Shown: piece by piece, positions 13,796-62,500 of the stretch
How positions within the stretch are numbered: position 1 is the stretch's first letter
Layout: each line of letters starts with the position of its first letter
Assembly (NCBI RefSeq): GCF_032062105.1
Contig: NW_026935190.1
Location: forward strand, 496,001 to 560,000
Direction: 5' to 3'
DNA from: Saccostrea cucullata
Lineage: Eukaryota
DNA length: 64,000 bases
Notes under the pieces: generated by a model
What the model saw: the letters and a program-made list of their open reading frames with translations, nothing else
What the model was told of the DNA's origin: nothing
Database searches by the model: none
Position numbers and translations under genes: made by a program

Positions 13796-15246
13796 CTTGT
13801 ATCTGTGAGAGGACAGAGTTGAAATATATTTGCTAATACATGTTTTCAATGCTAAACTTAACTTTAAAACATCCTACATGATTGTTTGCGTCGGGGAAAT
13901 ATGAATATGAAAACATGGATTACTCTAGCATTAAAAGTGTATCTCTATCAAAAAGTACAGGGTGTCCAGTTTCTGAAACAAATGTAGAAGTAAAGTGTTT
14001 TTATAGGATAAAGTGTCTGGATTGATCGGAGATCAATAAATGATGGTGGCACTGAAGCACCAATTACTAAATTTGAAGCCAATTTAGTGAGACAAGGCTA
14101 ATCGGATCTGCTCAATCTTAATGTGTTGACAGCATTATCAATCAAAACAGACACAGTCCATTTATCATCTTTGCAATTCAAGACTACTTGTGATCCTGAT
14201 CTGTCATCACAATGCATCAGGCAAGTCCTATAACCCTAGTTACTCATTCCAATAGAGCGGGCTATCGATATTTGTAATTTGGCAAACCATCGTCCACGAA
14301 GCAAGGTTATTGGGGTGATTTGTTTGTATTCTATAAATGGTTGAGGGATTGACTCCTACTATGCTGTTTTTAAATCTATGTGATTTTTTTTCAGTCTTAT
14401 TGAGAGACCAACAATTACGGATGAAATGCCAAATATTATGATGGCTTTGGACCTCCGCCATTGCTGTGTTAAATATTCTTTATCGTGTCAATTATATAAG
14501 GGCATCATCCGAACCTGGCCATGGATTGAGGAGTTTTTGAAGCCCAAATGTTCGCAATAAACTACAGTGTAGTATATGCATGATTATTCAATCCCATTTT
14601 CAATTCTCCAAATTTATAATTAGTATATTGAAAATTCGGTCTCTGGAGAAAAAAAGTGTCGGTCACAAGATTTCTAATAATTTCAATATCTTTTTATTTA
14701 TGCAAGAAAAAAGGCCATGTTTGTAAATAATTAGAAATGGTGTAACTTGGAAATCTGTTGAGATTCATATAGATCAGATTTGTGCTACTTTTTTCTTTTT
14801 TCTAATACATGGGCAGGGATATTCATAAAATTGTTATACATGTACCCTATTAATTGTTATTTTACTTACTGGCTAAGTTCATTTACGTATACTTACATGT
14901 ATTTTTATATAACCAATGACAAGTAGTTGGAAATTGAACGTTTTTTTTAAATAGTGGTTGCAACCTGGTTTTTGAAATGTATGCTCAGGCACTATTGAAA
15001 AAATTATTTCAATAATCATGATAATAAGGTTCAATTCAGATGTGGTTGTGATGTAACCGTAATGTTTGAATAGATGAGCAAAAAGTATGATTTAGTTCAA
15101 ATGTATTACACTGACTATAGTTTTATACCTAACTTTCTAAAATTTCACAAATGAAAAAATGATACAAGAACTATAAAAGACAACATAGTAATGAGTTATC
15201 TTTATATATAAGTCAATTTTCTGAGTCAGTGGAAATAAAAATAATA

Positions 15247-17340: not shown

Positions 17341-19630
17341 AATACAGAAAAGGAGAAATTTGACGCTGCTGTAAAAGTTATTCACAGTTTACCGAAAGAT
17401 GGTGATTATTTGAAAAATATAAAGCAGTTCATCAATAATTTAGACATTTTAAAAAATATGTATATTTATTATTGTGTACCATCACCGATTTATTAAGTGG
17501 TCGATAATATTTTTAAATTTTATAATGCAACTATCTGCCTATGTTTGAACACATATTGAAATAATATGTTGACGATGCAACCTTTAGGGCGAGCGCAGAT
17601 ACCTTTGTAGTAATACTGATTATTAACTGTATGAAGTCCCGTCTTTTCAAACCGCACGACGTTTGATGACTAGACTCTGACGTCACATGTGGAATCAATT
17701 ACCAAACCAAAGCTGATTTTTTTTTTTTTAACTAAGAACATTTTATTTTCTAATTACACTTGTATATGCAATATTTATCCATTTAATCAAGAAGATGTTA
17801 ATTTTTTTTAAACTTTTGTTGTTTTTCTCGCAAGAACATATCTTAAAACAAGTGATGCATTTTGGGTCCAGAAGTTACTATGGAAAAAAAATTAACTGGA
17901 TCAATATGCAAGTCCAGATTTTCTCTTCGCCCAAGCGTTGTCATTAGATCTTGCAGTAGGAGCAGCCCTTTGCACTGCTCGCTGTGCTCACTGTTAATTT
18001 TACGAATTTTGATATTTCATTTTACGTTTGTAGGTCCTTTTCAGCCATCGTATGACATGATGTTGAGTTTTTATAGTTATTATAAACAAGCAACTGAGGG
18101 GAAATGTTCAAGACCAAAACCATGGACATGGGACATCGTTAACAAAAAGAAATGGTAATGGCATCTTCAAATATATCTGCCTTTACATACAATCAGAAAT
18201 ACCATTTTCTTTTGTTTTCACTGAACATGGGAAATCTTGACAATGTTAGATGTGTGACTTACTACCCTTGGTCAATGTAAACAAAACATCATAATCAAAA
18301 AGTGTAAATTATTCTCGGGTCATCGGGATAATTAAATCATATCAAAGCTTTTTGTTAGGCTGAATATTTTTAAAAGGACCCTTATAATAATTTTTTTTGC
18401 ATCTGTAATTTGTTAAAAATTTTGTTGGTAGAAAATAAAGTCAAAATTTCAAAAAGAAATGACATACGCAATCTTGAATTAGAGCAACTTTGTGACAGCA
18501 ATACAAAATTTAAACCATGACCTTTTTTTCTCTGTTTAGGCATATATATTTTCTACTCCAACACAGAGCAATAGAAATTATTTTAACATCATTGAAAAAT
18601 GCAGATGGAGATGACCTGCAGACCTTTTCACAAAAATCTTATGATAAATTTCTATCATAAGAGAAATATGAGGAGTTTATTTCTTTTCACAAAAAATCTT
18701 ACATTATTCTTGCTTGCAAAATTTATTGTAACTTTATGAGAGCCCTAACCCTCTAGTATTTTAAAACCAATTTTATAGTAATAACCACATAAACCAAAAG
18801 ACATGTTAAATGGAAAGTTTTTTAAGCAACTTACATGTACAATAACACAAAAAAAAATTTCACAATTATATTGTCGAAAAAATAAATAAAATACACTACA
18901 AAATATGTACAATATAAGTTTCACTTACCAGTAAGATTTTTGCAAAAAAAAATTTCACAATTATATTGTCAAAAAAATAAATAAAATACACTACAAAATA
19001 TTTACAATATAAGATTCACTTAAGATTTTTGCATGTCACTTTCTTTTCTCAGACTTGTGATTGTGACATCAGGTTACAAACTTCCTTGCTTCATAATATA
19101 TTGCATTTAATATTTGTTGTCAAAAAATGGGTTGAAGAGGTGAATATTGTACATTATAAAAGAATGATTTAGATTTTTTTCTGAACTAAGAAAAAAAGAA
19201 GGAGTTTTATTTTAGTACATGTAGAATAAACTTTTCACAAGCAGTGTTATCAAACAAATTTAAAAGTGAGTACATTTGATTTATCTTAAAAGGGATGCCT
19301 GGACAAAATTAGGAGATATGCCAAGAGAAGAAGCAATGGTAAAATATGTAGAAGAACTTAAAAAGGTAGGGACTTATTATAAGACAGATGTCCATCAGCT
19401 TCAGGGTGAAAAAAAAATACATGACAATTTGTATTACCTTTCCTTTTTTCTTCTCATATTTTCTTAGAAAACTGAATCATAATTTTCAAATATTTTATTG
19501 ATCATGCATATTACAAACCGAATAAGCAAAAATTAAGCAGCTATGGAATATTTTTTACCTTTTGTTTTGTATTTAATTTTTTTCCCCAGCAGTTTTATAT
19601 TCTGATTAGATAATTCATGAATTAAGTGAC

Positions 19631-19676
<46 letters not shown>

Positions 19677-19749
19677 CATTTCGTCCGTCCGTCTGTCTGT
19701 CTGTCTAGCTGTCCGTTTGTAAACTTTTCACATTTTCCACTTCTTCTCA

Positions 19750-19780
<31 letters not shown>

Positions 19781-22700
19781 CCACAAAGTATCCTTGGGTG
19801 AAGAGGATTCAAATTTGTTCAAATGAAGGGCCATGCCCCATCCCAAGGGGAGATAATTAATAATTACTGAAAATTAATGGCAATTTTCAAAAATCTTCTT
19901 CTCAAGAACCATTGGGCCAGGAAAGATGAAACTTATGTGGAAACATCCTCAGGTAGTGTAGATTCAAGTTTGTTCAAATCATGACCCCCAGGGTAGGGCG
20001 GGGCCACAATGGCTGATCAAAGTTTTACATAGGAATAGATAGGAAAAAATTTAAAAAAAAACTTCTTCTTGAGAACAGCAAAGCCATGATTGGTCATAGT
20101 TATATGGAAGCATCCTCAGGTAGCGTAGATCGAAGTTTGTGCAAATCATGACCCCCAGAGGTAGGACAGGGCCACAATGGACGACCAAAGTTTTACAAAG
20201 GAATATATAGGGAAAAAATCTTTAAAAATCTTCTTCTTGAGAACAGCAAAGCAATGATTGGTCATATTTATATGAAAGCATCCTCAGGTAGTGTAGATTC
20301 AAGTTTGTTCAAATCATGACCCCCGGGGGTAGGGTGGGGCCACAATTGCTGATCAAAGTTTTACATAGGAATATATAGGAAAATTTTTTTAAAAAATCTT
20401 CTTCTTGAGAACAGCAAAGCCATGATTGGTCATATTTATATGGAAGCATCCTCAAGTAGTTTAGATACAGGTTTGTTAAAATCATGACCCCAGGGTTGGG
20501 TGGGACCACAATAAAAGTTCAAACTTATAGGGAAAAAAGCCACTGTAGCTAGTCAAAAAATATGTAAGCATCCTTAGTTATTGTAGAATCAAGTTTTCAT
20601 ATATGGAAGTTTGTTCAAATCATACACCCCCCTTTTTAGGACTGGGACCACTTAGGTATTTACTGAATTGATTTTTTTCCTAGCCACAATGCTCAGGTGA
20701 GCAATGTGGCCCATGGGCCTCTTGTTTCATGTTCTTTATTAATATTGTTTTGTTTGTTGATGTTTGATTTGTTTTACTCTAAGGAAGAGGAGCTAAATGA
20801 ACTTTTCCCATTAAATTTCACCCTCCTCTTTATTCCTTTCATTTAAGAGACACTGTGGCAAATTTTGGCAAAATTTAGTTTAAGCTTAATCTTGAAAATC
20901 TTTTGTTTGATGTTCCAAAATAAAACTTAAAAACTTTCACAGTAAACAGTGAATAAATGACAGTTTTCCACTGTTAAACATGTGGTGAATTTTTATATTT
21001 CTTCATACCTGGTAAACATGATAAGGGGATCAAAATTTTACATAGGAATATATATAGAGAGAAAAAATGATTTTCCTCGAGAATATCATGAGTGCAGTTT
21101 TAATTAACTGTAGCTATACCCAGGCTAGCATGGGACTATGACAGGAGGTAAAGGTGTTAAATTGGAATGTTTAAGAAACACTCTCTATAAAACAGTTTAG
21201 TCTTAATTTTTCTCGAGAATGACAAGACTACAATTAGCTTCATGAATATGAAAGCAACTGCTTGCAGTGAAAATTGAAGATTATTCCTTATTCCTGTCAT
21301 GGCCGATGTGGTAAAATAGGCTATGCTAAGGGTGAGAAAATGGCAGAATGAAGGATTTTTTTCTTTCTATGAGTAATATTTCCTTTCTTTTTAAAAGGTA
21401 TTCTGATTCATTGTATAACAATTTTAAAGGGGTATATTTTTAGCAAATGAAAGTAGATTTTTTTTTTCAAATGTCTTTTATGAGGATATATGCTTTTTAT
21501 GTTATTAAATAAGTACATATACAGTGTACGTAACATTACTCTTGTATATTGGACTACTAGTAAGTGATTGTGTAGTATATCTGTGCAGCCAATTCAAAGC
21601 TTATTAAACCGTGTTTTAAATATATACAGCTTTATGATTCAATGATGAAGCAATCACTTTGTTGTTTCTCAATGTTGTGGATACGCAGACAGATAAGTGA
21701 GGTGATTTTTAACTCTTTCAGACTATCAAACATTTCACTGAGAAGGGGTTGGCAATGAAAGAACAGGGGGACCCCAGGGTAGGAGTTTTTTTCACTCTTT
21801 CTGTCTGTAGTATGGGTTTTAAGTGTACCATATTTTCCTACTCACATGCAATGCAGCATCCTACTTTCTTATTTGCCAACTATGTAGGTTCGTGATATTA
21901 TTCAACTAAGATTTGGTAGATATATTTTAATGGAATCTGGTCCCATGAAAACATTTATACGAGTTCTACTAATATATTGTCCTGGAATATGATCTTTAAA
22001 TTAGAACATATGTATGCATGTACTTTTAGCTACAAATTCAAAATTTGTTTTCAGCATATTGTTACATGTTTGGGTATGGATATATTTCTTCATAAACAAA
22101 ATTACTATTATTATTATTAACTAACAAAAACGTGTAACGCTTTATGCTAAAAATCTTCTTCATAAGCATGCACAGTTCCCTTTTATAAATTTCTTTTTCT
22201 ATGTTCTGATTTTAACAAGTTACCTAGTAAATATGTTTGAATGTTTTTGTATATTTCCCAGTAATTTGTTTACAAGTAAGACTTACCTGAGATATTGATC
22301 AGTAACATTTGCCAACAGATTGTTGAGGCTATGCCCCAAAATGAGGAGGTTCGAGACTTCATGGAAAAATTAGGCAGTTTTTATGAGATAGTAGATGAGG
22401 ACTCACCCGTTCCCAAACCCTCAGCAGAAAACCACAAACCTCAGGAAGAAAATGGCATTCCATCAGACAACGAATCAACAGGTTAAATCATTAAACTAAC
22501 TACGGAGATCTGCTTCCTTTCATTGTTGGGTTGTTTGAGTCTTCATTTGAAATATCTTTTTATTTATAGATGGTAAGACCCCACTGGAAATATTTGACCA
22601 CTCACAAATGGTGGACACTGTTTTGAAGAAAAGTGAGGATATGAATGACTTACTGAACCAATCAGATGAAGTTTTACAAAATGGTTTGGATGAAGAGGAT

Positions 22701-25700
22701 GAAAATGGTAACCCTTTTAATAGTGGAAAGTAAAATAAGGAAACTAAAACCATTTATTATGTTATTGATTGACAGGCAAAGGCAAAATAAGTGCTCAATT
22801 CAATAATATTGTATTAAAGTTGTTTGTATTTTTTTTTAATCAGGTAATTGAAATTTTTATGATGAATATTTTCTTCACCAGATACTTCCACAGACATTGC
22901 AGTCAGCACAAAGATACATGAAGAGGCAAGAGAGCTAGTCACCATGAATGGAGATCACATACATATCACAGATAGTAGACTGACAGTAGAGGCTCATCAA
23001 CAGAAGGGAAATAGATCTCCGGGGAATCAAGATAACCAGTCCCCACCCAGAGAGCGTAGGACCCACAGAAACAGACACCCTGTGTCAGGGGACCACCTGA
23101 CCAGTGAGACAGAGAGTGAGGAAGAATTCTGTGATACCTCCGACCAGCCATCACAGGTAAGGGCTTAAGAAAGCCTTAGCTGTGGGTATTGGTACAGGCT
23201 CATTATTAAGTATAATGTTACTGTATAGCAGTCGTTCTCAGTGGACCACAGAGATGCAGCATTAAAAAAATCAGCAATAAAATGGCAGAATTAGAGAGCA
23301 GATTTTTCTTTGAACCTGTGTTCTTGACTTCTTAGACTTTAACTTTCTGGCCAAAATAATTTATAGTAGGTAATGCATTTAAGTCAGACATGGTATTTGA
23401 TTTCTTTTGAATAACTTTAGGACGAAACAGATGCTGTAGGAATCAATCCAGCAATGGCAAACTCTACACCTTTAAAGTCAGGAGGTAACATAGGTAATCA
23501 CATTCCATTTGGATCTCATGGGCACAATTTTTCCTCCCTTCCCTTCACTCCCTCCAAAGGTCGGCTTTTAGGCTTCGGTAACAGTGGTAGAGGTATGACA
23601 GATAGCCTTCTAGTCCATGCGCCAGGACATGACACTATGAACCTCTCCTATAACAGCAGTAATAAGGATGAGGATCAGTCCAGTGGGAGGAGGGATATCA
23701 ATTTTAACTCATCGTACCTGCAAGACTATGACAAAGATGTCCGGGTAGTGGGAGGAGGGGATATGTCTCCTCCAGGAGGGTATTCTCAAGGTGAAGGTCG
23801 ACCAATCAGAGTACAGAATGTTGGAGGTAGGTGTAAAGATAATGCCAATGTTATTTTTAATGTTTTCTTTCACACAGTCCTTGTAATCTTAGACACCCTT
23901 CCTATTCAACAATTCAAACTGCAAACATTTCCTTTGCTTTCCAAAATTCCTGAAAAAAAAATGAATCATGAACATGGATATATTATATTAAAATCAGCAG
24001 TCCTTATTGGATTGTATCTTTGATGTCAACTTTTATATTATTTTTAACTATAGAATGTTGCTTAAATTTCAAAATCACTTTAAGGTGAAATATTAAAGTT
24101 TCACAGTACAGTATGTATATATTTTTTATAATCTGTATAACAAAATAGCACTGAAAAGTTTAGTACAATAGTTCATTTTCTTAGGTTATGAGCTCTTTTT
24201 AAAGAAGTTAACCATTTCCTTTATTTCTTGCAGGGAGAGAAATGGGAGGTAGACAAAACCAGCAGGGTGGTTCATCAGGCTCTCAGAGTTATCATGGGAT
24301 GGGTGGGGGTGGAGGGAGGGACAATGAGGGATTCCCTGTGGGGGCCCCCTCAGGGAGCATAGAGGCTCAAATGGCATTGGCTCTGGTTCGCTTACAGCAA
24401 GATATGAATAATGTGATGGAAAGAGTCCACAACCTGGAGCGAGCTCAGAGAGATCAGGTACAGCGAACAATTTACAAGAATTAAAATTTTGTAAGCTAAT
24501 CAGAGCAAAAGGCTCAATCATCAGTGTTTGTACCTTTATGTCTTAAATATTAACATATTCACTCCTTTCTCACTGCCAAAAATTCATGTGCAACAGCAAC
24601 TAAACAAAATATTTGAAGAAAAGGGAAATACATGTAAATTATTTTTGTGCATATGAGGGACCATACATGTATTTCTAGTTCAGAGGGATAATAGGGTGAA
24701 TCTTCAAATGTTTGCTGTATACAAATGTATGTTTGTTTTAACTAATTCCCTTCTAGGATTAAGACAGGGAAAAAAGTTCACCTTTTCAACAAAAAAAAAT
24801 CATTTTAAAAAACACACCTTTTACTTTTTGCATGTTCAAAGGATGAGGTAGGGTAATTGCCAAATCTGGCCCCATATTTGATGTGAAAATCAGAACACTG
24901 GTAAAATTGTGATAGTTCGTAATTAAGAACTGAAAATGATGCTTGCTTTAAAACCAGCACTGATTTTGATTCAAAGCTTACATGGAAGCCATTAGAGAGT
25001 GCACAAGTAGGACATTTTACCGAATTTACTCCATTCTGGTAGAATTTCATCATACCGTATAATCCCTATTAACCGCCCCGGGCGCTTAGAAAATTGCAAA
25101 AAGGGGGCGGTTATTTTGGTGTTCTCTTTATGATATTTAATGTCATATTTTAACTTCAAAAAATCGTTTGAAAATAAAAATTAATACAAGAAACAGCTAA
25201 GATAATGTCCAACTTTATTCAAAGTGAAGATAATCCACCCAAATTATGCTAAATTGTTCATTTTCCACGGAGAAATTGGATGACAGACAAATTTCATTTT
25301 CACTTTCTTCATTTTTTTGATACGATCCTGGTTGATTTTAATTACTTACAGGGGGCCCTTATTTCCTGACAATCGAAAAAGACCTAAGGGGGTGCTTATA
25401 GGGGTAGGGGCAGTTAATAGGGATTATACGGTTTTTGAGATATTTTTTTCTTGGGAAAACATAGAGCACAAGCTTGCCTATCTGAGATTTTTACACATAA
25501 ACTGCATCTGATAGTACTAGTTGATAAAATATATAAGTTTGGTAGATAGGCAAGCTTGTGCTCTGTTTTCCGAAACAAAATGTGCTGTAAAATCAATGAA
25601 AATTTGCATAAACATGAGAAAATTCATAAAATGACCTATTTTCTGACCTCTCTGTGACCTCTGTGAATTTCAAAACTTGGAGCCAGTACTCATTTTATGA

Positions 25701-46818: not shown

Positions 46819-49800
46819 ATGGCTGTGTCAACGTATATCAATTTGGTTGTGCTTGCTGGTGTATGCAATGGATTCCTATTTGGGCGTAAGTATCATACAC
46901 TCGTTCATTTTTTCTTCCAAGATATCCGATGATTTCACATTTTGTTTCAATATTCCAAACCTTGAGATATATCTCTTAATCATATGCAATATGAGACGCA
47001 ATTAGTACAATGGGTTTTTAATTTTTTCAGCAAAGTCTCATCCCTGGGATGGATTGAAAGGTAAGTGGATGCTTGGGTGTTCTGCTTAGTTACACTTATC
47101 CGATGTCTTAAAACAGTATACATGCACAAAGCAGAGTGGGGATTAACGCTGAAGGTGAAATTACAGTACCGTCAAGATTTTGGGAAATCAAGATGCTTGT
47201 TTAAGAATTTTGTTTTTTCGTCTCATTCTTTAAAAAAATGTGTCCAAAAGAGATTAGGTGTATAGAATATGAATTTCTTTACAAAACTTTTGTTTTTTTG
47301 ACATTATGCATATACTGAGATCGTTAAAGGCACCTGATCCCACCTCTGATGTTTTAGGGTTCTGTGTTTGCTCTGCTTCTGATTTAATTTGTTTGAATGA
47401 ACTTTGTCCTGGAAAGATTTTCATTGCATCCACATATTTTGCAATACCGGTATATTTTAAAAATTATTTTTATTTTACATTATACACATTATACTTATTC
47501 ATTTTTATACATGTGGTTTAATTTTATATTAGACTATATTTATTTTATGTTATATAAATTTAAAAAATTGAACAAGGATGCATACCTTAAATTCTTTACC
47601 TATATTAAAATGTTTGAAAAAAATGAAAATTCATGTGTATAGTTTTTATTCATCCCTTTCAGTGACATGGGGTATAAACCCTCTCAGTAGTACCAACTTT
47701 GCCAACATGCCGAGAACAGAGGCTGATGCCAAACATCAAGGCTTTACAATGATATCTGGATGTGGTGAGTAGATGATATCTGTAAAATCAGTATAAATCA
47801 AAACTTGATTGTAATATCTAGTTGTGTATCGTAAAATAAGTAGATGAATTCGATTTAAACTTGGATTTTATTATATATGAATTGTAATATAATATGGTGG
47901 TTATTACAATTGCCCGGATTAATGTAAATACTCCAAATTCTCTACCTTTATTTTTTATTTTGAACATTTATTTAAAACTTTAAAACCAATTTTGATTCCC
48001 CCACAATATACCAAATTATAAAAAAAAATAGTGAATTAATACTTTTCTGTATATATTGTAAATTCGGCTTATTCGGATGGATACATGTGCGTAATTTTTT
48101 TTTTGGATTTAGGACATCCTAATTTCCTCGGAAAGAGATACATGAAAAATAACGACCCTGCCGTCATCTTGATATACGACGTTAACGGTTACATCGCTGG
48201 TATTCAGGCTGGGGTACAGTTTATACGTTTCTAAAAGGAATTTCATTGAAATACACTGCACTGAAAAGATACGTTTTTCAACTTTCCAATTTGTTTAACA
48301 GAACAGAAATTTTAAGGTGGCCAAGTACCGGTTATGCTCAATATTTATATTATCTTTTTTTCATTTTTGTTAAAGTATTATTTAACATCCTTGCTGTATA
48401 TTTTGGGTAAAATGTGTATGCGTCTTTATAGGTACCAACAGGACTAAGCAATGGTTACCCGGCATCAAATCTTCAAAATCATCCCATGATCAAAGATGGC
48501 GACAAGCATTATATGACAGCCTATTTTGTCGCACCAAGTATGAGATATTTTATACCAGTTCTTTTAATATCTTCCGTTGTGCTTTATCATTTTTCTTATG
48601 AAATATGCAGCATAATATTTGTCATGACATTATTTATTTTAAAAGGTAAAAATGAAACGCTTTTATATCTTTAGATGATGATTTTATTTTCAGATTCGAT
48701 ATGCACACATGGACGTACCGCAGCTCAGTTTAGCCATCAGGGTACAGGGACAGATCTCTACATACAAAATAGTACTGATCCTATGGCCTCCATCAAAATA
48801 CCTCATCGAGAATCCGACATTGGATCTACATTGTGGGTCAAAGGCCATTGCTTCCCTGCCATGGGTAATTTTTCATTGTTTGATTTATCATTTAGTTGTT
48901 AAAAAATAAACGATATCTTATCGTATTATAAATGGAACAGATCATTTTTAATCAAAAATATTAATTGTCCCTACCTTTTTTTTTTTTTTATAATTTGTGG
49001 TAATCGTCAATATTGAACTATTACTAACTAAAGTTTATTAATTCAGTTAATTGTAACCTTGCGAGATATGTGGAGCCTTAGTGCCTTTACATCACATTGG
49101 CATTTAATTAAACTGTCATTGTTCTATATTTCGACATGTTCATCACTGGTTTGATACAACTGAACTGATGTTTTTCGAAAGTTTATAGGAGTTTGGGATC
49201 TATTACTGCTGATACACTGGTTTGACAACACTGTTGATACATTGTTCTTTACTTTAGTAGTCTTCATTACTGGTTTGACACTTCTTTTGATTTAATTTTG
49301 TATTTAAAGGTGTTTATAACTGGTCTGTCACTACTGCTTAAACATTGTTATTTACAATGTTGGTTTTATTGAAAACTAGTAAATTCTTTGTTTTAGACAT
49401 TTCTCCTGAAATATGTTTCTTTTACTAACAAAAGTTCTTGTCTAAAGAATGGACAGTTACAGGTTTGACGTTACTGCTGGAGAGAATATACTTTGTTTTT
49501 ACACTGCAGCTGATATATGCACATTGATATTTTCTCTGTGCGCCATGCCAAACTCTGAAAATAACTGGCTTAATGAAATAACTGCTGATACATTTTTCCA
49601 ATATCTTTTTGTAGATATTCATCTTAATCAAATGTGAAACATTTTAAAAGTTTTTGATGAAATAACAATCATTACTGTTTTGACATTACTGCTAATACAT
49701 TGTTCTGTACTTGATAGGTGTACAATCATTACTGATTTGACATTACTGATTTCACTTTTTTCATTACTCTTTAGGCTTTCATTACTGATCTGACACTACT

Positions 49801-50650
49801 GCTGATACATTGTTGTTTACTCTATGGGTTTTCATTACTAAATTAACATAACTGCTGATACTTTTTTTCATTACTCCTTAGGTTTTCATTACTCTTTAGA
49901 TTTTCATTACTGATTTAACACAACTGCTGATACATTGTTTTTTACCCTTTAGGTGTTCATTACTGGTTTGACACAACTGCCGATATGTCCTGTGATCGAT
50001 TTTTCCCTGTTTTCCTCCTATACAATGGTGGAGTTCTGAATGCTTTCGGATGGGCCTTTCAAGCTGATCTGTCCTCAACAAGATACGAACATCCTTCACA
50101 ATCATCATTTGGGGTAAGCATGTTTGACATTTTCTCATTCGCGAAGAACTGTATATATAAATAGTATCTTTTAAGTATCCACTCTCTTATACAGGACTTC
50201 ATGGTACTTTATAATCACTTTTAAGTGTTTTATTTCATGTTCTTAATAACCGAATTCAAGTATAGGTATTATTTATTTAATGCACTAAAACTAAAGCATA
50301 TTTACTTTAGTTTCAATGGTTCTTTTAAAACATATCTTCACAATTCAATTAGTAACGTTTTGCGATTATCAAATCTAACTAAAATGTTACTTATTTAATA
50401 AGAGAGTTACATGTATCACTGCTAAGTTATGGTAGTTGTTTTAAATCCATCCATAATCATTCTCTATAACTTTCGAAGAAAACAAATGATTTGATTTCAA
50501 TGCTTTTTTTGTTCTACATTAAGATTTGTTGTTTATGTTTTCCAGGCATTCATGAAGGTTGTGCCAAACTGTCTACGTGACGCAGGAAAACTTTCAACAC
50601 TACACATTTACCTTAATGGAAACCCACAGACAGATTTGTTGTGCAACTAA
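46819..50650 (+). CDS. Uncharacterised secreted protein, paralog B, 280 aa, intact 8-exon gene
   Basis: join(46819-46885, 47031-47060, 47663-47764, 48113-48213, 48432-48537, 48694-48864, 49953-50113, 50546-50650) = 843 nt, open throughout, all GT-AG. Signal-peptide-like MAVSTYINLVVLAGVCNG, 6 Cys in the mature chain, AATAAA ~25 nt after the stop. Confidence 0.92.
49120..49985 (+). repeat. Degenerate ~53-bp tandem repeat derived from the intron 6/exon 7 junction of paralog B
   Basis: Unit approximately TACATTGTT...TTTAG|GTGTTCATTACTGGTTTGACACAACTGCTGA; spacing 53 bp (e.g. CATTAC at 49780/49833 and 49905/49958); interrupted at ~49380-49660. Confidence 0.85.
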
Positions 50651-50901
50651 AGGTGTTTTTGTATAAAATAATGTAATAAATAAAATTGAATATAAAATCC
50701 ATTATCTTGTGTATTTTTCGAATCAGTAAATAGGTAGGAAAACTATAATGAAATTAATAATCAGAATACAAAAATACTACCTGCGATTGAAGCTATGAAT
50801 TTCACATCTATAATTTTTAATCTTTTGACCACTAAATATTTCGATTCTTCGATTATTTGAAAAAAGTAAAAATGCGAGTGAAATTTCATTGAATATTAGA
50901 A

Positions 50902-51101: not shown

Positions 51102-53387
51102 TATTGATGTAAGAGATCGATCGAAATTCTCAAATTGAATACTCTCTAGAAATTACAAAATTTGAATTTTCTTTACATCTATAGTTTTGAATTTAAAAGA
51201 ATAAGAATGATATCTTAAACAAAAAAATATCTTTTCAAAGAAAGTCTATATTTTCAAGTGTGTTTGTTATTGAAGAAGTTGTTCTTTTCAAGTCCCTGTT
51301 TCCAAAAATTGCGGAATTATTGAATAGACTGTGTTGAAAATGTAACACGTATTAGGGTGATTTTTGATAGATTTGCCTTCTATGCGACTGATGTTTTTAG
51401 ATGCTACTATCACTAATACCTTCAGGTACAAGCTTATTTTTGCAATAATTTATTCAGATAGATTATTTTTCAAGTTATTTAAATTCTAACTTTGTCGTGT
51501 TTACACTGGGATATTTAAAAAAAATATCAACAGTTTTCATTGATGTGTTTTGATTATAATTTTATTGTTGTTTTAGTTTTACCTATGTCCATTAATCCGA
51601 TGTTTATTTCCATGTCTTTACAGGTTTCCTCTGTGTCTGTCCGTCTGTTTGTCTAGCTTTCCCTCTGTCTATCTGGCAGTCTACCCCATGCACTTGATTT
51701 TTAGCATAATTTTCGAAACAGACTAAATGTTTTGACGTATGAGTGCATCTTGATGAGTTAAAGATCAAGTTGGCATATTGGTTTGCTTAAATTACTTTTC
51801 ATGGATTTTAAATTTCTAGGCCTTTTCTGGTATTCTTTTTCTAAACACTTGTAAAATATTGAGCTGAATTTCTTTAACAATGAATCTTTGCTCTAGATTA
51901 CTTGCATGTATGTGGTATTTTAAAATCAAAATTGTATTGTAAAAGTCATCTTATCTTCAAGGTGATTCCCTTAAGGATACTTCAAGAGGAGTTCCTAACT
52001 GATGAATTCTGCAAAATTGCCATTTTTCTGTATGAAAACCCTTCATTTTCTTGATATAGTGCATGCAACATCCATCATGATTGCTTCAATATTATTCACT
52101 ATAAACCAGTAAGGCAATTAGGTTTTCTAACAGTTCTTGTTTCCTATTGACCATTCGTCCTCATACATGTAGTATTACGATTTCATACAAAGAGCAAATG
52201 ACACACAAGTAGGCAATGGTGTGAAAAGTCAATATTATCGATGAAAGGCAGAAAAATGGAAATATGTTTAATTACCTGCATTGGATACCTGTTAATCTAT
52301 ATAAAGCTATAAATCTGGATTCAAAATATTAACCGGAGGCCATGCTGCTTATTTCCACTGAATCTAATTATCTTCGTATTTGATTTGGACATTATTTAGA
52401 AATGACGTTCTCCTGTCTCCTGTTAGTAAAATTAGAATCATTAAATGACTTTTCGGTGTAATTTTTCCCGTCTTTAATATGATGTGTTGCCTAATTTATA
52501 GTTTTAAAAAGTTCAATTTCCTTACATATCTCTAGGAAAATGAATTAATAAGGTTGAACATAAAAGAAAAAATTGAAAGTCGGTAAAGATGAATGACACG
52601 CTGTGTTTTCGGTTCCATACAAAGTCACCAATCAAAAATGAATGAAATAAATGAACATGAACAGTTACGTTTTGTCGATACGATCTAATATTTCTACCTT
52701 AATATTGGTGATAATTGGAAATTTACAAATGTATGAAAACTGCAGGTTTATCATTCATCATGGATTTTTAGTTAGAAATTTGCTTTATTCACTCGATCAA
52801 ACCATACTACAGGAAACTGACAATCTTACGAAGTAATTCATTAAGAAGTAATGGAATTTATCGAAGAGATTCTACAAAAATTCTGAAAGTGGTCATTAAG
52901 GACGTCAAAGTGTTGCATAATTTTTCATAAACTGCGACTCAATTAGTAGTTTTTCAAGATACACAAATCTAATCAATAGAATGTGTATAGATGACATTTT
53001 GGAATTTCATGAATTGCTGTATTCTTTAGGTAGAAGTCTTATTACCATGACAATTGGTGATGGTTGTTTATGCTCGAGCGTGACAATGCTGCTTTGCTAC
53101 ATATTTCTCAGTTCCTGACAAGCAAACGTGTACGATGCATTACGGAAGCTGATCAAAAGCCACTTTTGCGCTAGGCCTGCCATTATTGGATGCTGATATT
53201 GAAGCTACATATAACCGTTGTGGCTATCGAAAGAATGGTTACTTAATTTTTATTGGTGCATTGTTAATGATGTATTAACTTCCGACCCTATATATACGGC
53301 ACTTAACTTTCGATGTCTGTACGACCCTGCATCTCGGATCATAAATGGAAAACCAAAACGTTATTTTTTACACAAAACCACCTTAAC

Positions 53388-56300
53388 ATGATTTTTATTA
53401 AACTGTGTGTAGTACTTTTCGTACCTCATATGATTAAACCCGCTTCCTCCGCCTTAAATATAACAGTTGGGATACTAGCACCACTCAAAGGACCCAAAGT
53501 GTTTGGAAACGAAATATTCCATGTGATTAAGGATACATTCATTCTCATTCGAGGTGAATCCAGATTTTCTGAAATTCAGAGACTTGGTGTGAATTTTATT
53601 TGGAAATTCCGAGATACCCACTGTGATATTGGACAAGGTCTCTATGAATTAGTGTCCATTATGGACTTTGAGTCGGGTGGAGGACAAGATATAGATGCCT
53701 TCATAGGTAATTTTAATGCATTATCCTTTTTTTTTATTTTCAGCTGCTGTATAACAAAAACTAAAATAGGAACAACGATGCATGTTCAAGAAATCTTTCA
53801 TGATAAGATTGAGTCCACATTATAACTATCAAGTCAATGTATAGACATAGTCATAGACGTTATTTCAAGTATAATATATTTTCCTATGAAATTATTTGAC
53901 TTGCAAGTAGGACAGCGTTCTTTTTACTAATTTAAAATTAAATGTTGGAATTTGTGTTTTAAATCACTAGTAGAGGATGAAAAATATGATCTTGTTTTTT
54001 TTTTTCAAGCAAAAGAAGAAATCTGTATCACATGTATATCTTATTTGACATATTCACAGCATGCAGTGAGTGGATAAAAATGTCTTCTTTTAATGAATAT
54101 GAATAATCAATATCCCTCTGTTTTTATTTAATAATGCTACAAATTACATTGTTATGATACACACACCTGATAATATTCGAAATGTCAGCTACCCCTTAAA
54201 CACAATACTTTCTTCAGTTCAAGCTCTTTTGGAAATTTTTGAGAGATGTAGAATATTTGGGATTAACACCAGGTATTTAACAGATTGAAAAACTCGAGAA
54301 AAACAATGCAAACACGAGGAAATCTTCATATACTGTTGAAAATTTACTTAAAAGAAAATAAATTATGGTCATTTTCAGTCTGTATTCCATCTAATAATTT
54401 CTAAAACTGAACAACGAGGTTACAACACGCTAAAAAGTAAAGTTTGCAAAAATGACTCTGCAACGCCAACCAAATTGAATTCAGTTCTGTAATACTTTTC
54501 AACAATGGGTATTTTACTTGAACGTATACAATTGCTTATTCTATCTTTTAAAAAGTTCCGGAAATTTTACCTCAAATCAGATTCTATGCATTGTCATTAG
54601 CAATTGACATTTCCAATGTTGTTGCTCTTTGGTATAATGAGTCGTGCTAGATGATAATATAACTTTTTCTCCACTTTTTGTGAAGGTAATCACGCAAGCT
54701 TTCAATTGCCTTATCCATATTCCTCACTTAGGCCCCGTTTGTGACGACGTTTGTGAAGCTGCTGGCCATTTGGCGAAAAAATGGAATCTTCCAATGATCA
54801 GTTTTGGATGTGCAGAAAGAATACTGTCAAATAAAATACTGTACCCTACCTTCGCTCGAGTCTCTACACCGTACATGGAAATGGAGAAATTCATTGAGGA
54901 CACAATCAGGCATTTTGGTTGGAATCGCGTTATCGTTGCAGAAGGAGCTGAGAAAATATGGAGAGAATCAGCGGAACATATAAATGTAACAGTATAATTT
55001 TCTTAATTGTAACATTAATTAAATACACTAAATTTATTAGTACTGAAATGAGAAGAAAAAAACACAGAGTTTTAGTTTTCTTGATGGATAAAAAATTGAT
55101 AAATTATGTTCATAAATATTGTGATATGGTTAATTAATGAAGAAATATTGTTAAGATTTTTTAAAATCATTTTCTTTATATAAGATATTTTTCTAGAGAT
55201 TTTTTTAAAAAATGTATAATGAGAATACATGTATGTGTAGATATTTTGGCGGTTGACTTCTCTTTTTTCTTTGAGATCTTTTGTAATTTTCCTTATCACC
55301 ATAACTCTGGAAAAAAAGAATGGTATAATTACTTGATTCTCAGTATTATTCTATGATATAATTAGTTATCTCCTTTTTTTATTCTTTCCTCTGTAAAAAG
55401 CCGGGTTGTTTTCTCTTGAAAATTTTATTTATTCTTTTCCTAAATCACGCATTTGTCCGCCTACAAATTGATCTATCTAACCTGCGACTCTGGAAATTTT
55501 TTTTAGATAATTGGTTGACATTTTCGAATAAGAATCAGTAGTGATACTTAGGCAAAGAGTTGCCAATATGTGTCCTCTTTAAGCAGTTCCTTGTAACACA
55601 ATCTTTACATTTAATGACCATGCATATAGAATTCCTTCAACAAAGCAAAGAATCAGTCCCTTGGCATCTTTAGCCTGTTACACTCTCTTAGATTTCAAAT
55701 CATGATTTATCAAATTTCGAGTCTTTTCATTTTCTCGTTCACCATATAAACACGAAAAAAAAAAATAAATAAAAAGAAGGCAGAAATTGCGACTTCTTAT
55801 TACGTAGACTTTCAATATTATTGTTTTTAAAATTTTATATTTTATAGCAAAATGTAGAACAAGACTATACATGTATCAAAGGAACAAATCAAATTTATCT
55901 TGTTACTATGCAACCAACAGTCCCTTAGGCTAAATAGGGAATCCCTAGATAAAAGTACTTTTTTAAAGTTATAAACTCAGTTTAAATTGTGTACAAGGAC
56001 TAAATGTCCGTTGCTTGTATGTGCAGGTAGGGAAGGAAAAACCAAATATTTTGAACATTATAATACATTGTTTCCATTCTACATATTTCTTGTGAATACC
56101 CTCTTGTCATAACTGAAAATTAGTACGACAATATGCTAAGTACCCTAAAACAGATATTTGGCTACAATAAGGAACCGAACGTTAAAACAGAAGTACCTAA
56201 AGCATTTATGTCACAATTTAATTTCTGCTTAATCAAATTAGAAGTCATCATAACAATTTTTAAAACACCTTTTGCGCATTAAATTACTTTGCATAAGCTC

Positions 56301-59300
56301 CGTGTAATTGTATGTCAATTGAACATTATGGCAAAATTTAGTCAAATGCCACTTGTCGGTGGTCAGCTATAGGTACTTGTGCTATATTTGAGTGATTTGT
56401 TTATCATTAAAACATGTTTACAGACACTTTGTCATTATGTCAAATGGATCTCCTTCTGCATAAGGTGACGTGATTTGCAAATGACGTCATAAAATCTGTC
56501 AATAATTCAGTGTGTATTTAATGGCCTGTTCACAGAGACTTTAATTCGCAGTAAATTAATGCGAAGTAAACTAACGCGAATCAAACTAATGCGAATTAAA
56601 TTGCGTTCACGCGACAGCTAATGCGAAGTAAACTAATGCGAATTAAAATTTTACTTCTGCAGCCCGGCGTCAGCATAGCTAATATGACGTCATTTGCAAA
56701 TCACGTCACCTTCTGCAGAAGCAGACCCATTTGACATAATGTGTATACACATTTTAATGATTAACAAAATTTTCCATATTTTTAAAATAGCACAAGTATT
56801 TTAGCTGAAAAATTAAGAAAATTAGTCATGAATTTAATCGAATTTTTCCATGTCACACAAACAAAATATATCCAGATTGCTAATTACATTAAATTCTTGT
56901 GAACGCAGAAAACGGTAATTTGTTTAATTCGTTAAACTCTCCGTGTGAACAGGGCATTAATTCGCATTAGTTTAATTAATGTGTAAATTTAATCAAATAT
57001 TCGCATTAGTTTACTTCGCATTAATTTACTGCGAATTAAACTCTCCGTGTGAACAGGGCATTAATTTCTGCTTAATCAAATCAGAAGTCATCATAACAAT
57101 TTTTAAAACACCTTTTGAGACTTGTTTTCACTTACTCGTAGTAATTGTATGTCAATTGAACATTACAAAATAGGAGCATAGCAAACAGGGACCTCCAAAA
57201 CATAAGAGGTGGGGAAGTGAGTATGACGTCACCTGTCACACCTGTCGTGTGCATCCAAAAAGTTAGAAAAATCTGTCAATAATTCAGTGTGTATCTAATG
57301 GCCTTAATTATTAATTAATATGAAAAACGTCAGCCAGAATATGCCTTAATGATCAATTACTAGTATCCAATTTTCATTCCAATGCGTGGTATATTGAATG
57401 TTTAGTCAAGTTATTTATGATTATACAAACTTTTTTTTAAAAACTCTTTCATTTTCCATATGCTCTATATCATCACAAGAATCAATGGAACAGCAATCAA
57501 AACATTCATACAAAAATACAGATTGTTCACTGGCGATTAATATCCTACATGTATATATTTGCAAATTCATAATTCTCGCTATTTATTCAACCATTTATTT
57601 GGATGACTTAAAAATTTAGATTTGGGGGTATTTTTCTCCATCACAGATAACTGTTTCTCCAACAAAAATGAAATTCAAGATTTTTCCATTTTCATATTTT
57701 ATGATTAGTAATCTTAAAAATAACTTTCTAAAAATCACATAAGTATTGTGGGGTTATTAATAAAAGGATGCTAAAGTATCAGATGACAATATCTACTTAG
57801 TCTTAGAATGTCTATGGATACTGGTCGACCTTTTCACCCGCTTAATATTTATATGAAGCAGAATTTATCAAAAGATCCTACATTAGAAAAAAAGAACAGA
57901 CATACTATTGTCTTTATTCAGATACATCAGCGATGTTTTAAATTAAATTAAAATTCCATTTTTGACTGGATAAACTCAGTATCCAAGCAAACTCGAAAAG
58001 ATATCTGTTTCATATCGGCCCCAAGACCATAAACTGAGAACAGACTTCAGTAAAAATTTAAAAGCAGTGTAACTGTTGATAATGTTGATAATGAATCAAA
58101 AAGTATATATATTTGAATTCAAACTAGAGAATTGCAATTTATTTTAGCAAACACGTCAAGCAATATCAAAGAATTAAAACAAAGTTAGACTTAAGTTTGT
58201 TTACAGTTTATGGTCTTGGGGCCTGATTGTTTTACTAACTTTAGAGGTTAATAGCTAATTAACAACAAACTTGCTATTCCATCGTAAACTTGCCTTTTTA
58301 TGTAGTAACATTCCGATATATTGAGGGTTATGTCTCTCAATTTATTTGATACTCAAGAGCAAGGTGAATCTTGTAAACCCAGACAAAACTGGCAAATAAA
58401 GAACTGATAAACAAACTACCATTTGTTTTTAAAAATACGTTTAAACTAGCACTTCGAAAATTATTCGGTCGTTATAATGATCGCGTTTGTAAATGAAATC
58501 TGTGATTGGCTTGTGTTTTGTCTATTTTATATCAATTCTAAAATATTTTAATTCTTAATTTCACTGCGGATTACTCCGTCTTTCTAATCAATACATGAGG
58601 TCACGGAAGGTGACCCAGGTCAGCATGGGACGTTTTCTCCTCCTGGACACTTGATCCCAACTCTTGTACTTTAACTATCTCTTTAAAGCATAGTGCCAAG
58701 ATTATTTTAATCAATCCTTGTTCGATCGTTCCATCAACTTTACTTACATTTCTGCTGAACCATAAAAATCAATCAAAATCGGTACCCCAAGCAGTTCTCA
58801 TAACCATCACTTGGAATAACTCTTTATACAAAATTTGTACACATTAAAAGAATATATCTATGCTCATTTGACGGAATATTTTTTTATTTAATTATCTTAT
58901 ATCTATAAATAGGTGGAACTTGAAAAACATGGTTTTGATGTGAACTTATTAACAGTTTACAACGATCCTGTATATCTAACACATCACCTTGAAAGAGAAT
59001 CCAAAACAACAAGGGGTAATCTCTCTCTCAGTCTCTCTCTCTTTGAATTTTTTTATGTTAATAGAATGATCGTATTTAAAATAGTTTTTATAATAGAATT
59101 ATTTATTAGAAGTATATTCGTAAACAAATGAGTAAAGACAAGTTCCTTCTAGCTACGATCTTCGGAATGGATATTGATTAAAATATAGTTGTTTTTTTTA
59201 AATCAATGCTAAAAAGATCTTTTTGCTACATAACAAAAAGACCAGTTACTAGCTATAAAAGTAAAGAGTAATTCTCCTTCCTATTCATACCTGTATAGAG

Positions 59301-59504
59301 TGGATTTATTTTTTCTGACCATAAGTATTTGTCTTTTAGTTTTCCTAATATATGCTTACCCCAGAGACATCATGGGTATAATGTGTGCTGCGGCTGAAAT
59401 AGGTCTACTTAACGGAGAGTACGCTTTTCTGACCATCGACTTTGGTCTGGCCTTTGATGAGAAGGAATTCGATGAGAAGAAATGTCCCCATAATGTCACC
59501 GATG
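53388..59504 (+). CDS. 5' exons of an ANF-receptor-domain membrane receptor (natriuretic peptide receptor / receptor guanylyl cyclase-like); continues beyond the last exon found
   Basis: join(53388-53706, 54732-54985, 58913-59015, 59340-59504, ...), in phase; alternative start at 53313. Signal peptide and periplasmic-binding-fold motifs DTHCD, DAFIGPVCDDVC, WNLPMISFGC, LSNKILYPTFAR, HFGWNRV, GEYAFLTID. TM, kinase-homology and cyclase exons are not in the window, so GC activity is inferred only. Confidence 0.87.
56522..57060. mobile_element. MITE with G(G/C)CCTGTTCACA TIRs (PIF/Harbinger-like), rearranged
   Basis: TGGCCTGTTCACAGAGACTTTAATTCGCAGTAAATTAATGCGAAGTAAACTAA mirrored at 57005-57060; TTAA on both flanks; 15-bp AACTAATGCGAA repeats; extra right-end copy at ~56933-56960. 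Confidence 0.7.
58017..58223. mobile_element. MITE with 20-bp perfect TIRs
   Basis: GGCCCCAAGACCATAAACTG ... CAGTTTATGGTCTTGGGGCC. Confidence 0.75.
58290..58670 (+). mobile_element. Penelope-like retroelement 3' fragment
   Basis: Decayed SNIP/VSQ and RLK...FRKLFGRYND motifs plus the recurrent tail. Further tail fragments at ~47325-47400 (+), ~57175-57260 (-) and ~60940-61030 (-). Confidence 0.55.
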
Positions 59505-62500
59505 GTAAGTACCGGGCTATTTTACAATCAAAGCATTTACATTGATTGAGGCTGATGGTCTGCTTGTATATTTCTTCTTTTAATTCATATTTGCTAGAAT
59601 TTATCGCAGTATGCTTAAAAAATGTTACAATTATTTCTAATTCTTTGATATAATTAAACATAAGGTAGATGAAAATAATTATTATGATTTTTATTAAGAT
59701 TATTAAGAACGAGGAGAAAAACATATATAAATCTGCTTCTTGTCGTGTATTTTATAAAAATAAATTTAAATTAGAAAGCAAAATTAGAAATCGTCATTCA
59801 TAAATAAAATCGTATTTTTTTCAATTTATTTTATTTGAAAAGTATTGGAATTTGAGTTTAACAATAATAAATCGGCATATTTATTATATTTTGCATTTTT
59901 AACTATGCAACAATTAATAGACAAAAGGAACTTTCTTTTTTCTGGAAGGTCATGCTTAGTACATTTTTTCTTTTCTTTTTTTTTAAACTTCAAAGATAGC
60001 CTTTTTACATGCATGAAAAAAGCTGCAGCTTTTTTCTGTCTTTAATTTCTGTGCTTTCTATTAGGTTAATGTAATCTTATAAGGCAATATTTACACTTTA
60101 TAAATGTGAATATAATTTTATAATGCATCTTTTTAATGCAACCTTTACATTTTTAAAACAAGGAAGGTAAACTTTGATTTATTTTTAAATGTATTGATCT
60201 ATTATGATGAAAATCGAGTAGGTGTTTGCGTTTTTTATAATACCGAAATTTTTTTGTCGATATAGATTCCGGAAAACTTGTTCCACACCGTTTATGAGAA
60301 ACCTCCAGGAGACGATTAATGTTAAAACTTTGATGTCATAATGTATATTACGTGATTTTAATTTCCATCTACACGAATGTAATCACTTTTTCAATGGATG
60401 TAGATAAGTCGACGTCGTTGTTTAACAAAGCACTGGATGATTTTTCTTTAAAGCTTTGAAAAATAGTTTATTCACTACAATATATTTATAATTAATCAAT
60501 ATAGTACTAGTACCTCTGATAGCTTCTGTTCACAGAAAAGAAAAACACTTTAGTATATATACAGTTAATCGTGTAAGGAAAACATTTCATTGCAAAATGG
60601 TTTTTTACCTCAAGATAATTGACATTTCTAATTCTGAAGGGATTGTGGAAATGCACTTCAAAAATGTTATAATAAATATATAATTCATAATTGCATATCG
60701 TTCTGCATATCTCTTATTTCTTCAAAAAATAGAAGGAAAAGTCTTTAAATTAATTACCTTGAGAGTATTAGCTTTGCATGGATTCAAAATATTTAAATTG
60801 CGTAGACACAGCTAAATTTCGTACGGATATGAACATGTTCCATTTTTATTTAAATGTACTTAACAATAAATAAATGATATGGAAATAAAAAAAACAATAT
60901 TCAAGCTCAAAAAATATTAAAACAAAACAAATCAAGGGTTAAGCAAACATGAATTTTTATTACATCATAGGTGGGATCAGGTGTCATGAAGAATTGAATA
61001 TCCCTTTCCGACCAGTCAGACTCGGCTTGTGCTTCTTGTAATGATCGTGTGATTCAGTGTGTGTAAATAATGGACTAACAATATGTATGATAAACTTTCA
61101 GCAAGCATTTAACTTAATGACAGGTAGAATTTGCCGATAAAGACCTTGTATCTACCAATAAATGTGTAATGATAATTTCAAAAGAAGATTTTTTAAAAGG
61201 AACATCTTTAAAAATATGTTTAAAAAATTAAAGTAATCAATCTTTCAAGATTGAAAATTGCGTATTTGGCATTAAAGCATTTAATGACACAAACTGTCCA
61301 GAAGCTTATTGGAAAATAGATGGAACTGATTGTAATTCCATTCAATAATCTCTACAGCAATTTTCAAAACCTAAAGTGCCATTAGATTTGGAGAAATGTT
61401 GCTCTTTAAAAAAAAAAAATTTCCAACTATTTACATGGCATCAACATTTCATATATGATCATGGACAATTGCAACTATAGTTCAATACCAACTATATAAA
61501 TTTAGCAATTGCTAGTAACATAAAGAAAAAAATGTAATATTGTTTTATCTCAAGATACAAGATGATTTCAATCTTGTTAATTTTTTTTTACAATTATACG
61601 CTTCGCATTATTCTATCAGGAAGAAGTACTAATGATAATACGAAATGATATAAATAATGCTAGACGTTTGATGATATCTAATACCTCATCTAGATTGGAT
61701 TTTGTACGGTTTTAATACTAAGGTTTATTCTTGCAATTTCAGGCCAAGATGTATCAATTACATAACATAGTTGGTTTCATTGAACATAAAATTGAAGTGA
61801 ATATGAACAGTATTATTCGATTTGAATTATTTAAATACAAGGAAGTTTTAAAAACTTAATACTTCACATATGTAAATTTTGATCGGTAGTGTGTACTGAG
61901 TATTGTCTCTGATAAAATGACTTGTGAACATTAAGTCAATCACAGATTCCTCTAGACAGTTTTTGGTGGAGAAACATTAAAAAGGCTGTATTTCAGAGAT
62001 ATGATACCTGGAATTCAAAGATAGTTGATATTTTATCCCATGTTCACTTGAATAGGGTTAGGTTAAAAGGTTTAGAAGCGCAAAAACCCTAGCCATAACT
62101 TTGAAGCAGAGGAATAGTATAGGCTGAATTAATTATCAAAGTTCGACAGATTTCATTTTTACAAGGATTATGATTCAGGAATTGCAATTACATTTAAGTA
62201 ATATTGCACATTTTCTTTTATAAATCAATTCTAGAAAAAAGCCATTACTTTTGTTTTGTAAGTTTAATTATGACAATCCATATATGCACTGGAAGCATTC
62301 CAGACCGTAACAAGGTACGGTTGTTGACGAACAACAAAAGGCTTTCTGTGAAGAAAGAAAAAAGAGATTAAGAAAGAAAAAAAGTCAAATTTGTCTCTTG
62401 AAAACAATAATGCCTAGTATTTGTCCCCAATAAACCATCAAAAGAAACATCTTCCATTTCGTGACAAAGTTCTGATGCATATAGAAATTTGCTATAGATA

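Follow-up and report, generated by a model that had tools for sequence, protein, structure and literature searches.

The gene at 46819-50650 on the forward strand of a 64,000-nucleotide stretch of Saccostrea cucullata DNA (contig NW_026935190.1; the whole stretch is called the window here) raises the question of whether its product is built from two copies of one domain, of which a single copy carries a metal site. The original prediction had proposed such an arrangement, with a site for a metal such as copper or for haem, and had offered it as an undescribed system. What we find is one gene and its tandem paralogue, belonging to a large uncharacterised eukaryotic family and already called by RefSeq. 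We favour, with moderate confidence, the reading that the protein is a secreted pseudo-dimer with one metal site in its second repeat, likely for copper, and that it would act as a one-site metalloenzyme or a redox metal-handling protein.

The gene has eight exons separated by seven GT-AG introns, and splicing these out leaves an uninterrupted frame of 280 codons. A protein search with exon 6 as the query retrieved the 280-aa uncharacterized protein LOC134242184 of S. cucullata (P0001), to which the spliced product is identical; the product of the Pacific oyster orthologue, LOC105331236, shares 81% identity with it, and neither RefSeq record carries an annotated domain or function. All of the peptide motifs quoted in the original prediction lie in frame within exons 3-8 of this one spliced gene, and the range it gave, 47663..50650, takes in those exons and leaves out exons 1 and 2 (46819-47060), with the likely signal peptide. 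The protein had been described as secreted, and its N-terminus is hydrophobic in the way typical of secretion, with a best 10-residue hydropathy of 2.5 at residue 7. The same N-terminal hydrophobicity is present in 185 of the 194 relatives with a full N-terminus, while a control window in the middle of the protein is hydrophobic in 1 of 226; an internal hydrophobic stretch was found in 5 of the 194 and a KDEL end in none of them. Based on hydropathy, this 29-kDa oyster protein is likely secreted.

The internal repeat is not detectable within the single protein, as pairwise alignment of its two halves gave a local BLOSUM62 score of 22 that was matched by 829 of 1,000 shuffles. Half-versus-half profile alignment of 110 sequences gave P 0.003-0.005, and half profiles built from 226 relatives (273 proteins were fetched and those of 230-330 aa kept, equivalent to about 209 effective sequences at 80% identity) matched each other with an HH probability of 92.8% (E 3.9e-7, 56 columns), or 90.9% over 103 columns when aligned globally. 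A reversed profile gave 0.2%, and 80 shuffles of columns or blocks all scored lower. Thus the two repeats, and the register in which they had been aligned by eye (G73/G193, R75/H195, A130/H266), are recovered at the level of the family profile. An AlphaFold2 model (predicted local distance difference test 93.5, predicted template modelling score 0.88) has the same order of elements in both repeats: a helix at 52-57 and strands at 60-64, 74-78, 85-88, 93-102 and 125-131 in repeat 1, and a helix at 175-180 and strands at 183-189, 193-198, 212-217, 220-228 and 263-268 in repeat 2. C66/C139 and C188/C279 are equivalent cysteine pairs in the two repeats, and of 220 sequences 9 have lost both C206 and C255 and 6 only one of them; these patterns suggest three likely disulfides, C66-C139, C188-C279 and, as an extra in repeat 2, C206-C255. 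Covariation between the repeats, a thin signal at this depth, links W35 with A191 (z 5.1, adjoining M192) and A99 with F228 (z 4.3, equivalent positions), consistent with repeats that pack around a pseudo-two-fold, the M192 turn lying next to where repeat 1 begins. The predicted fold is compact and two-domain, with the repeats packed together as a pseudo-dimer.

The five candidate ligands all lie in repeat 2. Across the 226 relatives, H195 (codon 49958-49960, exon 7) is kept in 223, M192 (48861-48863, exon 6) and E238 (50087-50089, exon 7) in 219 each, H266 (50603-50605, exon 8) in 217 and H239 (50090-50092, exon 7) in 180, and all five are present together in 171. No column of repeat 1 reaches 50% His or Met across the same relatives, and at the two His positions repeat 1 has R75 (201/226) and mostly Ala at 130. 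These column counts agree with the original prediction that a conserved Met/His/Glu set is restricted to repeat 2. Its wording that only the second half keeps His and Met is correct for family-wide columns and incorrect for the oyster protein itself, whose first half has several such residues, none of them majority columns. Nor does repeat 1 appear to be decaying, as the word degenerate had implied: mean column conservation is 0.49 in repeat 1 and 0.51 in repeat 2, columns conserved at 90% or more number 13 of 96 and 16 of 112, respectively, and the conserved residues of repeat 1 include D81, D89, G96, Q98 and Y131. Judged by these columns, repeat 1 is under constraint equal to that on repeat 2. 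The original prediction had also counted the Cys and the preceding His of its HCxxxMGxH motif as ligands. The position before C188 (codon 48849-48851, exon 6) is variable, being K in 51 and H in 31 of 110 relatives, and C188 is itself a doubtful ligand because it most likely forms the disulfide with C279. In the foraminiferan and Dermamoeba members, all five candidates are kept and repeat 1 has drifted. Of the 226 rows, 18 lack one or more of M192, H195, E238 and H266, in some cases by truncation. Several candidate ligands are lost in P0137, P0167 and P0206 (from oysters and Hydra), two of which have long low-complexity insertions or extensions; two long oyster paralogues outside the 226 lack several of the ligands. 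From their sequences, P0137, P0167 and P0206 are possible inactive paralogues.

The sequence pattern of the protein had been likened to TTHB210-like DUF5602 (PF18197) proteins. When a repeat-2-only model of the relative P0212 was compared with 48,161 chains, the TTHB210 structure 3VG8 ranked first (Z 4.6, 76 of 106 residues aligned, root-mean-square deviation 3.6); a second structural look with repeat 2 again placed 3VG8 first (Z 5.0), and the whole model placed it fourth (Z 3.8, over residues 176-278). Formal membership was not recovered: P0001 has no match to PF18197 at the cut-off of 26.6 bits, PF18197 is absent among the families listed for 150 members (25 of 30 families listed, the others weaker than E 0.2), and direct comparison with the TTHB210 sequence was not significant. 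A bacterial PF18197 subfamily collected from a Thermus oshimai member (the best 120 of 214 proteins; P0274-P0393, loci L094-L103 and L116) matches 3VG8 by profile at E 6.6e-7. Repeat 2 aligns to this subfamily profile with a probability of 59% (P 9.3e-5) over 31 columns at C-x3-M-G-x-H, a result reached by none of 80 shuffles. A repeat-2 hidden Markov model scores at least 5 bits (maximum 7.8) in 38 of the 120 subfamily members, in none of the 120 reversed sequences and in none of 1,156 background open reading frames (ORFs). Repeat 1 gave no significant match to either bacterial subfamily (P 0.027 and 0.045). Within the T. oshimai-type subfamily, M51, H54, H106 and H127 are present in 120/120 and D105 in 109/120, and the C47/C140 pair is lost jointly in 10 of 117 and never singly. 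A global alignment equates M51 with M192, H54 with H195, D105 with E238, H106 with H239, H127 with H266 and C140 with C279.

The likeness of the oyster protein to TTHB210-like proteins thus lies in the order of elements, the C-x3-M-G-x-H-aromatic motif, the P-x-aromatic strand that follows it and the closing Cys (T. oshimai-type), with export likely in both. In contrast, the oyster protein has two repeats per chain, is eukaryotic with introns and has no PF18197 score. It also lacks the T. oshimai-type C-terminal His cluster (G-H-x-G ... P-H-Y-x-x-H, with H116, H123 and D/H125), of which only the last His is matched, by H266, and it has G225 in place of the strand Glu E78. TTHB210 itself, which we take to be a dimer in solution and a decamer in the crystal, has no equivalents of M192, H195 and H266. 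The proposed relationship stands as a weak top structural match and a shared CxxxMGxH motif, and falls as PF18197 profile membership; the oyster protein is likely a doubled, distant offshoot of the TTHB210-like fold and would have arisen by early duplication of a single-domain TTHB210-like ancestor. The bacterial subfamily has nine invariant candidate ligands (M51, H54, E78, M80, H106, H116, H123, D125 and H127, in 119-120 of 120). From its sequences, this subfamily is a strong candidate for a two-metal site and, because E78, H116, H123 and D125 are missing in the oyster family, the bacterial proteins may hold two sites of which the eukaryotes retain one.

Among the TTHB210-type loci of GTDB (the best 80 of 568), a cupredoxin gene directly follows the TTHB210-type gene in 59 of 80 (L013-L087). 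It does likewise in the four alphaproteobacterial plasmid loci inspected (L003-L006) and not in the Thermus and Deinococcus loci. The TTHB210-type DUF5602 gene and the plastocyanin/azurin-family gene form a conserved two-gene unit, often overlapping, of which no description was found in the literature searched; in some of these loci the two genes may be fused, or a single long ORF may span both. On its plasmid, TTHB210 itself has genes for a haem ABC transporter and a ferritin-like protein nearby. Around 11 MGxH-bearing loci, for which 81 chosen ORFs were scanned, a cupin gene is present within about 1.5 kb in 4.

We consider it probable, from the conservation pattern, that the oyster protein binds a transition metal. 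Given metal binding, copper has about an even chance of being the metal, zinc a distinctly smaller one, and another metal or haem the smallest. The case for copper is indirect, built on a strictly kept Met amid the His ligands, an oxidising compartment and the family context. Repeat 2 would hold one metal ion, most likely copper, through M192, H195, H239 and H266, E238 serving as an additional ligand or taking part in catalysis, and repeat 1 would have given up its ligands (R75 for one His, A130 for the other) and stayed as a scaffold and one wall of the pocket. The protein would then be an extracellular one-site metalloenzyme or redox metal-handling protein rather than a bulk metal store, a choice suggested by its one site per 29 kDa, the deep invariance of that site, the conserved ligand-free repeat and the ligand-less paralogues. 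A preprint (10.64898/2026.10.18.759936) predicts two transition-metal sites in each of two TTHB210-like proteins, scores them as catalytic and gives no metal in 3VG8.

Several observations weigh against a copper site of this kind. The preprint's sites are predictions made with zinc, and 3VG8 is metal-free. The structural match to 3VG8 is weak, since a Z below 8 can reflect a common arrangement, the next row, 8WJ5, stands at Z 3.8, and Foldseek gives 3VG8 only E 1.5-1.9. The equivalences of E238, H239 and H266 come from one global alignment with a probability of 12%, and nothing significant emerges when the C-terminal part is compared by itself with the bacterial subfamily (local P 0.077, global none). 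The MGxH motif is absent from the cupredoxin-linked bacterial group (0/80), and many of its 80 loci are from related Gemmatimonadota, while the MGxH-bearing group has a cupredoxin neighbour within about 1.5 kb in only 2 of 11 loci. H239 is substituted in 46 of the 226 relatives, and the relatives were collected with family profiles, which biases them toward conserved columns. The convergence of the five residues on one point is predicted from conservation.

A secreted zinc (or manganese) hydrolase or lyase of digestive or immune type, in which H195, H239 and H266 bind the metal, E238 is the general base and M192 shapes the pocket, would explain many of the same residues, and we regard it as unlikely. 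Three His and a Glu are a common catalytic zinc set, and the several paralogues per genome in molluscs and amphioxus, together with the ligand-less P0137, P0167 and P0206, would suit a family with dead copies. Set against this, M192 is more strictly kept than H239 (219 and 180 of 226) and its commonest substitute is Gln (3), which would suit a ligand better than a packing residue, and no known hydrolase fold stood out in the structure searches. The zinc enzyme draws further support from the preprint cited above, which scores TTHB210-like sites as catalytic with zinc. Less probable again is a non-catalytic carrier or scavenger that takes up a metal ion or haem in haemolymph, mucus or gut fluid through His/Met ligation. 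The protein is likely secreted with no transmembrane segment, the haem transporter and ferritin-like genes near TTHB210 point the same way, and His/Met ligands suit Cu(I) or haem b; however, one site per 29 kDa makes a poor store, five candidate ligands exceed what haem needs, the polar residues R75, D81, Q98 and Y131 of repeat 1 are kept with no obvious need in a carrier, and the CxxCH motif of c-type cytochromes is missing from the oyster sequence. We think it improbable that there is no metal at all and that the His, Glu and Met residues make up a hydrogen-bonded core or a ligand pocket of lectin type. The metal-free state of 3VG8, the variability of H239 and a literature that, in the parts available, shows no metal binding for any member would agree with this. 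Nevertheless, four classic ligand-type residues are kept at 96% or more, from amoebae to amphioxus, in one of two otherwise equivalent repeats, and TTHB210 lacks the equivalents of M192, H195 and H266, so its empty crystal is no test of the oyster site.

Known copper proteins offer partial parallels to the favoured single copper site. P19/FetP/Tp34 proteins have a His3/Met copper site and peptidylglycine monooxygenase has a His2/Met CuM site. Both are exported proteins, and their ligand inventory of His and Met near a carboxylate resembles the one proposed for the oyster protein. This is an analogy of chemistry only, as neither appeared among the sequence or fold matches listed; P19/FetP/Tp34-type proteins were not listed in the fold searches. 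The cupredoxin family PF00127 was not listed among the families of 150 members, one weak pseudoazurin match (E 0.074) appeared in 1 of 110, and all six conserved Cys fall in the three likely pairs, which would leave no free Cys as a cupredoxin ligand. The two proteins of the preprint, A0A0M5K0Y8 and A0A7S0R8P6 (10.64898/2026.10.18.759936), share with the oyster protein predicted transition-metal sites and the fold family; they differ in bearing the Pfam label and two predicted sites each, where the oyster protein would keep one.

The family is broad. A word search found 181 family proteins among 623 candidates, and a profile search found 1,357 clusters (50% identity) at E 0.001 and 716 at 1e-10. 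Members occur in bivalves, gastropods, a chiton, a brachiopod, nemerteans, a bryozoan, amphioxus and a nematode, and further in corals, Hydra, a rotifer, foraminifera and Dermamoeba, with molluscan and amphioxus genomes carrying several paralogues; most of the family tree lacks resolution, and its branches are long. The nearest ESM Atlas clusters are unnamed and mostly arthropod (0.95-0.96), and repeat 2 alone retrieved no usable named cluster there. No vertebrate was among the named matches, though absence from vertebrates was not specifically searched. Pfam searches of single exons, of whole proteins and of 150 members, and an NCBIfam search of 110 members, found no family shared by more than one member, searches of PDB sequences with the protein and with the profile found no match, and Foldseek against PDB and viral models found none at E 0.001. 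No relatives of the eukaryotic family were found in viral contigs, GTDB contigs (searched by pattern), plasmids or 301 sampled genomes of one phylum, all of which are weak blanks. Fusions to esterase, astacin, amine oxidase, TSP1 or PAN domains were set aside as singletons that may be merged gene models, as were the source names 'charged multivesicular body protein 7' and 'DOMON domain-containing', which have no domain match behind them.

The window DNA is AT-rich and eukaryotic in character, and the exons of the gene divide the protein as follows. Exon 1 (coding part 46819..46885, residues 1-22) carries the start codon and the likely signal peptide and ends in a GT donor in phase 1; exon 2 (47031..47060, residues 23-32) is bounded by AG/GT with the frame kept, and its product matches P0001. 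Repeat 1 begins in exon 3 (47663..47764, residues 33-66, with W35, P49 and C66), has its core in exon 4 (48113..48213, residues 67-100, with G73, R75, D81, D89, G92, G96 and Q98) and ends with its final strand in exon 5 (48432..48537, residues 101-135, with A130, equivalent to H266, and Y131). Exon 6 (48694..48864, residues 136-192) encodes C139, the linker and the start of repeat 2, exon 7 (49953..50113, residues 193-246) encodes H195, C206, E238 and H239, and exon 8 (50546..50650, residues 247-280 and the stop codon) encodes C255, H266 and C279, with an AATAAA at 50675. Intron sites differ between the repeats, falling after codons 66, 100 and 135 in one and after 192 and 246 in the other.

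Intron 6 contains, at 49138..49923 on the forward strand, seven degenerate and partly tandem copies of the 22 coding bases that open exon 7; with up to 5 mismatches allowed, this word has 8 matches in the whole window, namely these seven and the true exon. The copies cover the H195-coding part of exon 7, some stand behind AG-like acceptors, and they form a minisatellite (49138-49985); tandem arrays with a period of 53-125 lie at 49669-49985. As judged from their sequence, the copies are possible decoy splice acceptors.

The tandem paralogue lies upstream at 33922..41404 on the forward strand, located by tblastn of P0001, P0006 and P0008, and has the exon layout of the main gene, with its exon 7 garbled in the assembly to a single 52-base remnant of 79% identity near 38500-38550. 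P0008 (199 aa) matches this paralogue, and P0006 (280 aa, intact, on another contig) is a near twin. The segment 38494-39531, which contains the garbled exon, is a deletion-rich copy of 40468-41767 (278 versus 16 gap columns and 62 mismatches over 1,316 columns), and is more likely a long-read segment left unpolished or mis-assembled than a true pseudogene. Between the paralogues, 22-base tandem arrays lie at 44748-44867 and 45962-46195, the second with a near-palindromic unit. Elsewhere in the window, a downstream gene at 53307-59545 (forward strand) has an ANF_receptor ligand-binding region (E 5e-16) and is probably a natriuretic-peptide-receptor-like guanylyl cyclase. A gene at 11439-13873 (reverse strand) resembles major facilitator superfamily sugar transporters and is presumably SLC45-like, and a gene at 17856-24484 (forward strand) has an acyl-CoA-binding domain.

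Oysters accumulate copper and zinc, and nothing here links this gene to that trait. Searches by gene identifiers, by DUF5602/PF18197/cd11669, by peptide motifs and by topic, the last judged on titles and the openings of abstracts, found no description of the family in the literature, with subscription journals and supplementary tables outside the search, and none of the family accessions compared appears in the available part of a scallop cadmium paper (PMC12357810). At its widest, the favoured reading would describe an ancient secreted copper-enzyme family of animals and protists, a notion that we hold only tentatively and rate as rather unlikely. A duplicated TTHB210-like fold would bear, in repeat 2, a copper centre of His3/Met type together with a catalytic Glu, its repeat 1 would form the substrate pocket, and the enzymes would work extracellularly, in oxidation reactions or in iron handling assisted by copper, in molluscs, corals, amphioxus, arthropods, rotifers, foraminifera and amoebae. 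For a family of 1,357 clusters that has no Pfam entry, is present in several copies in farmed oysters, mussels and scallops and has members in corals, the analysis proposes a likely descent of the fold and names five residues as targets for mutation. Whether TTHB210-like proteins use metals becomes testable in a stable, single-site, easily expressed member and, if the protein is indeed a copper enzyme, it would represent a new class of animal cuproprotein.

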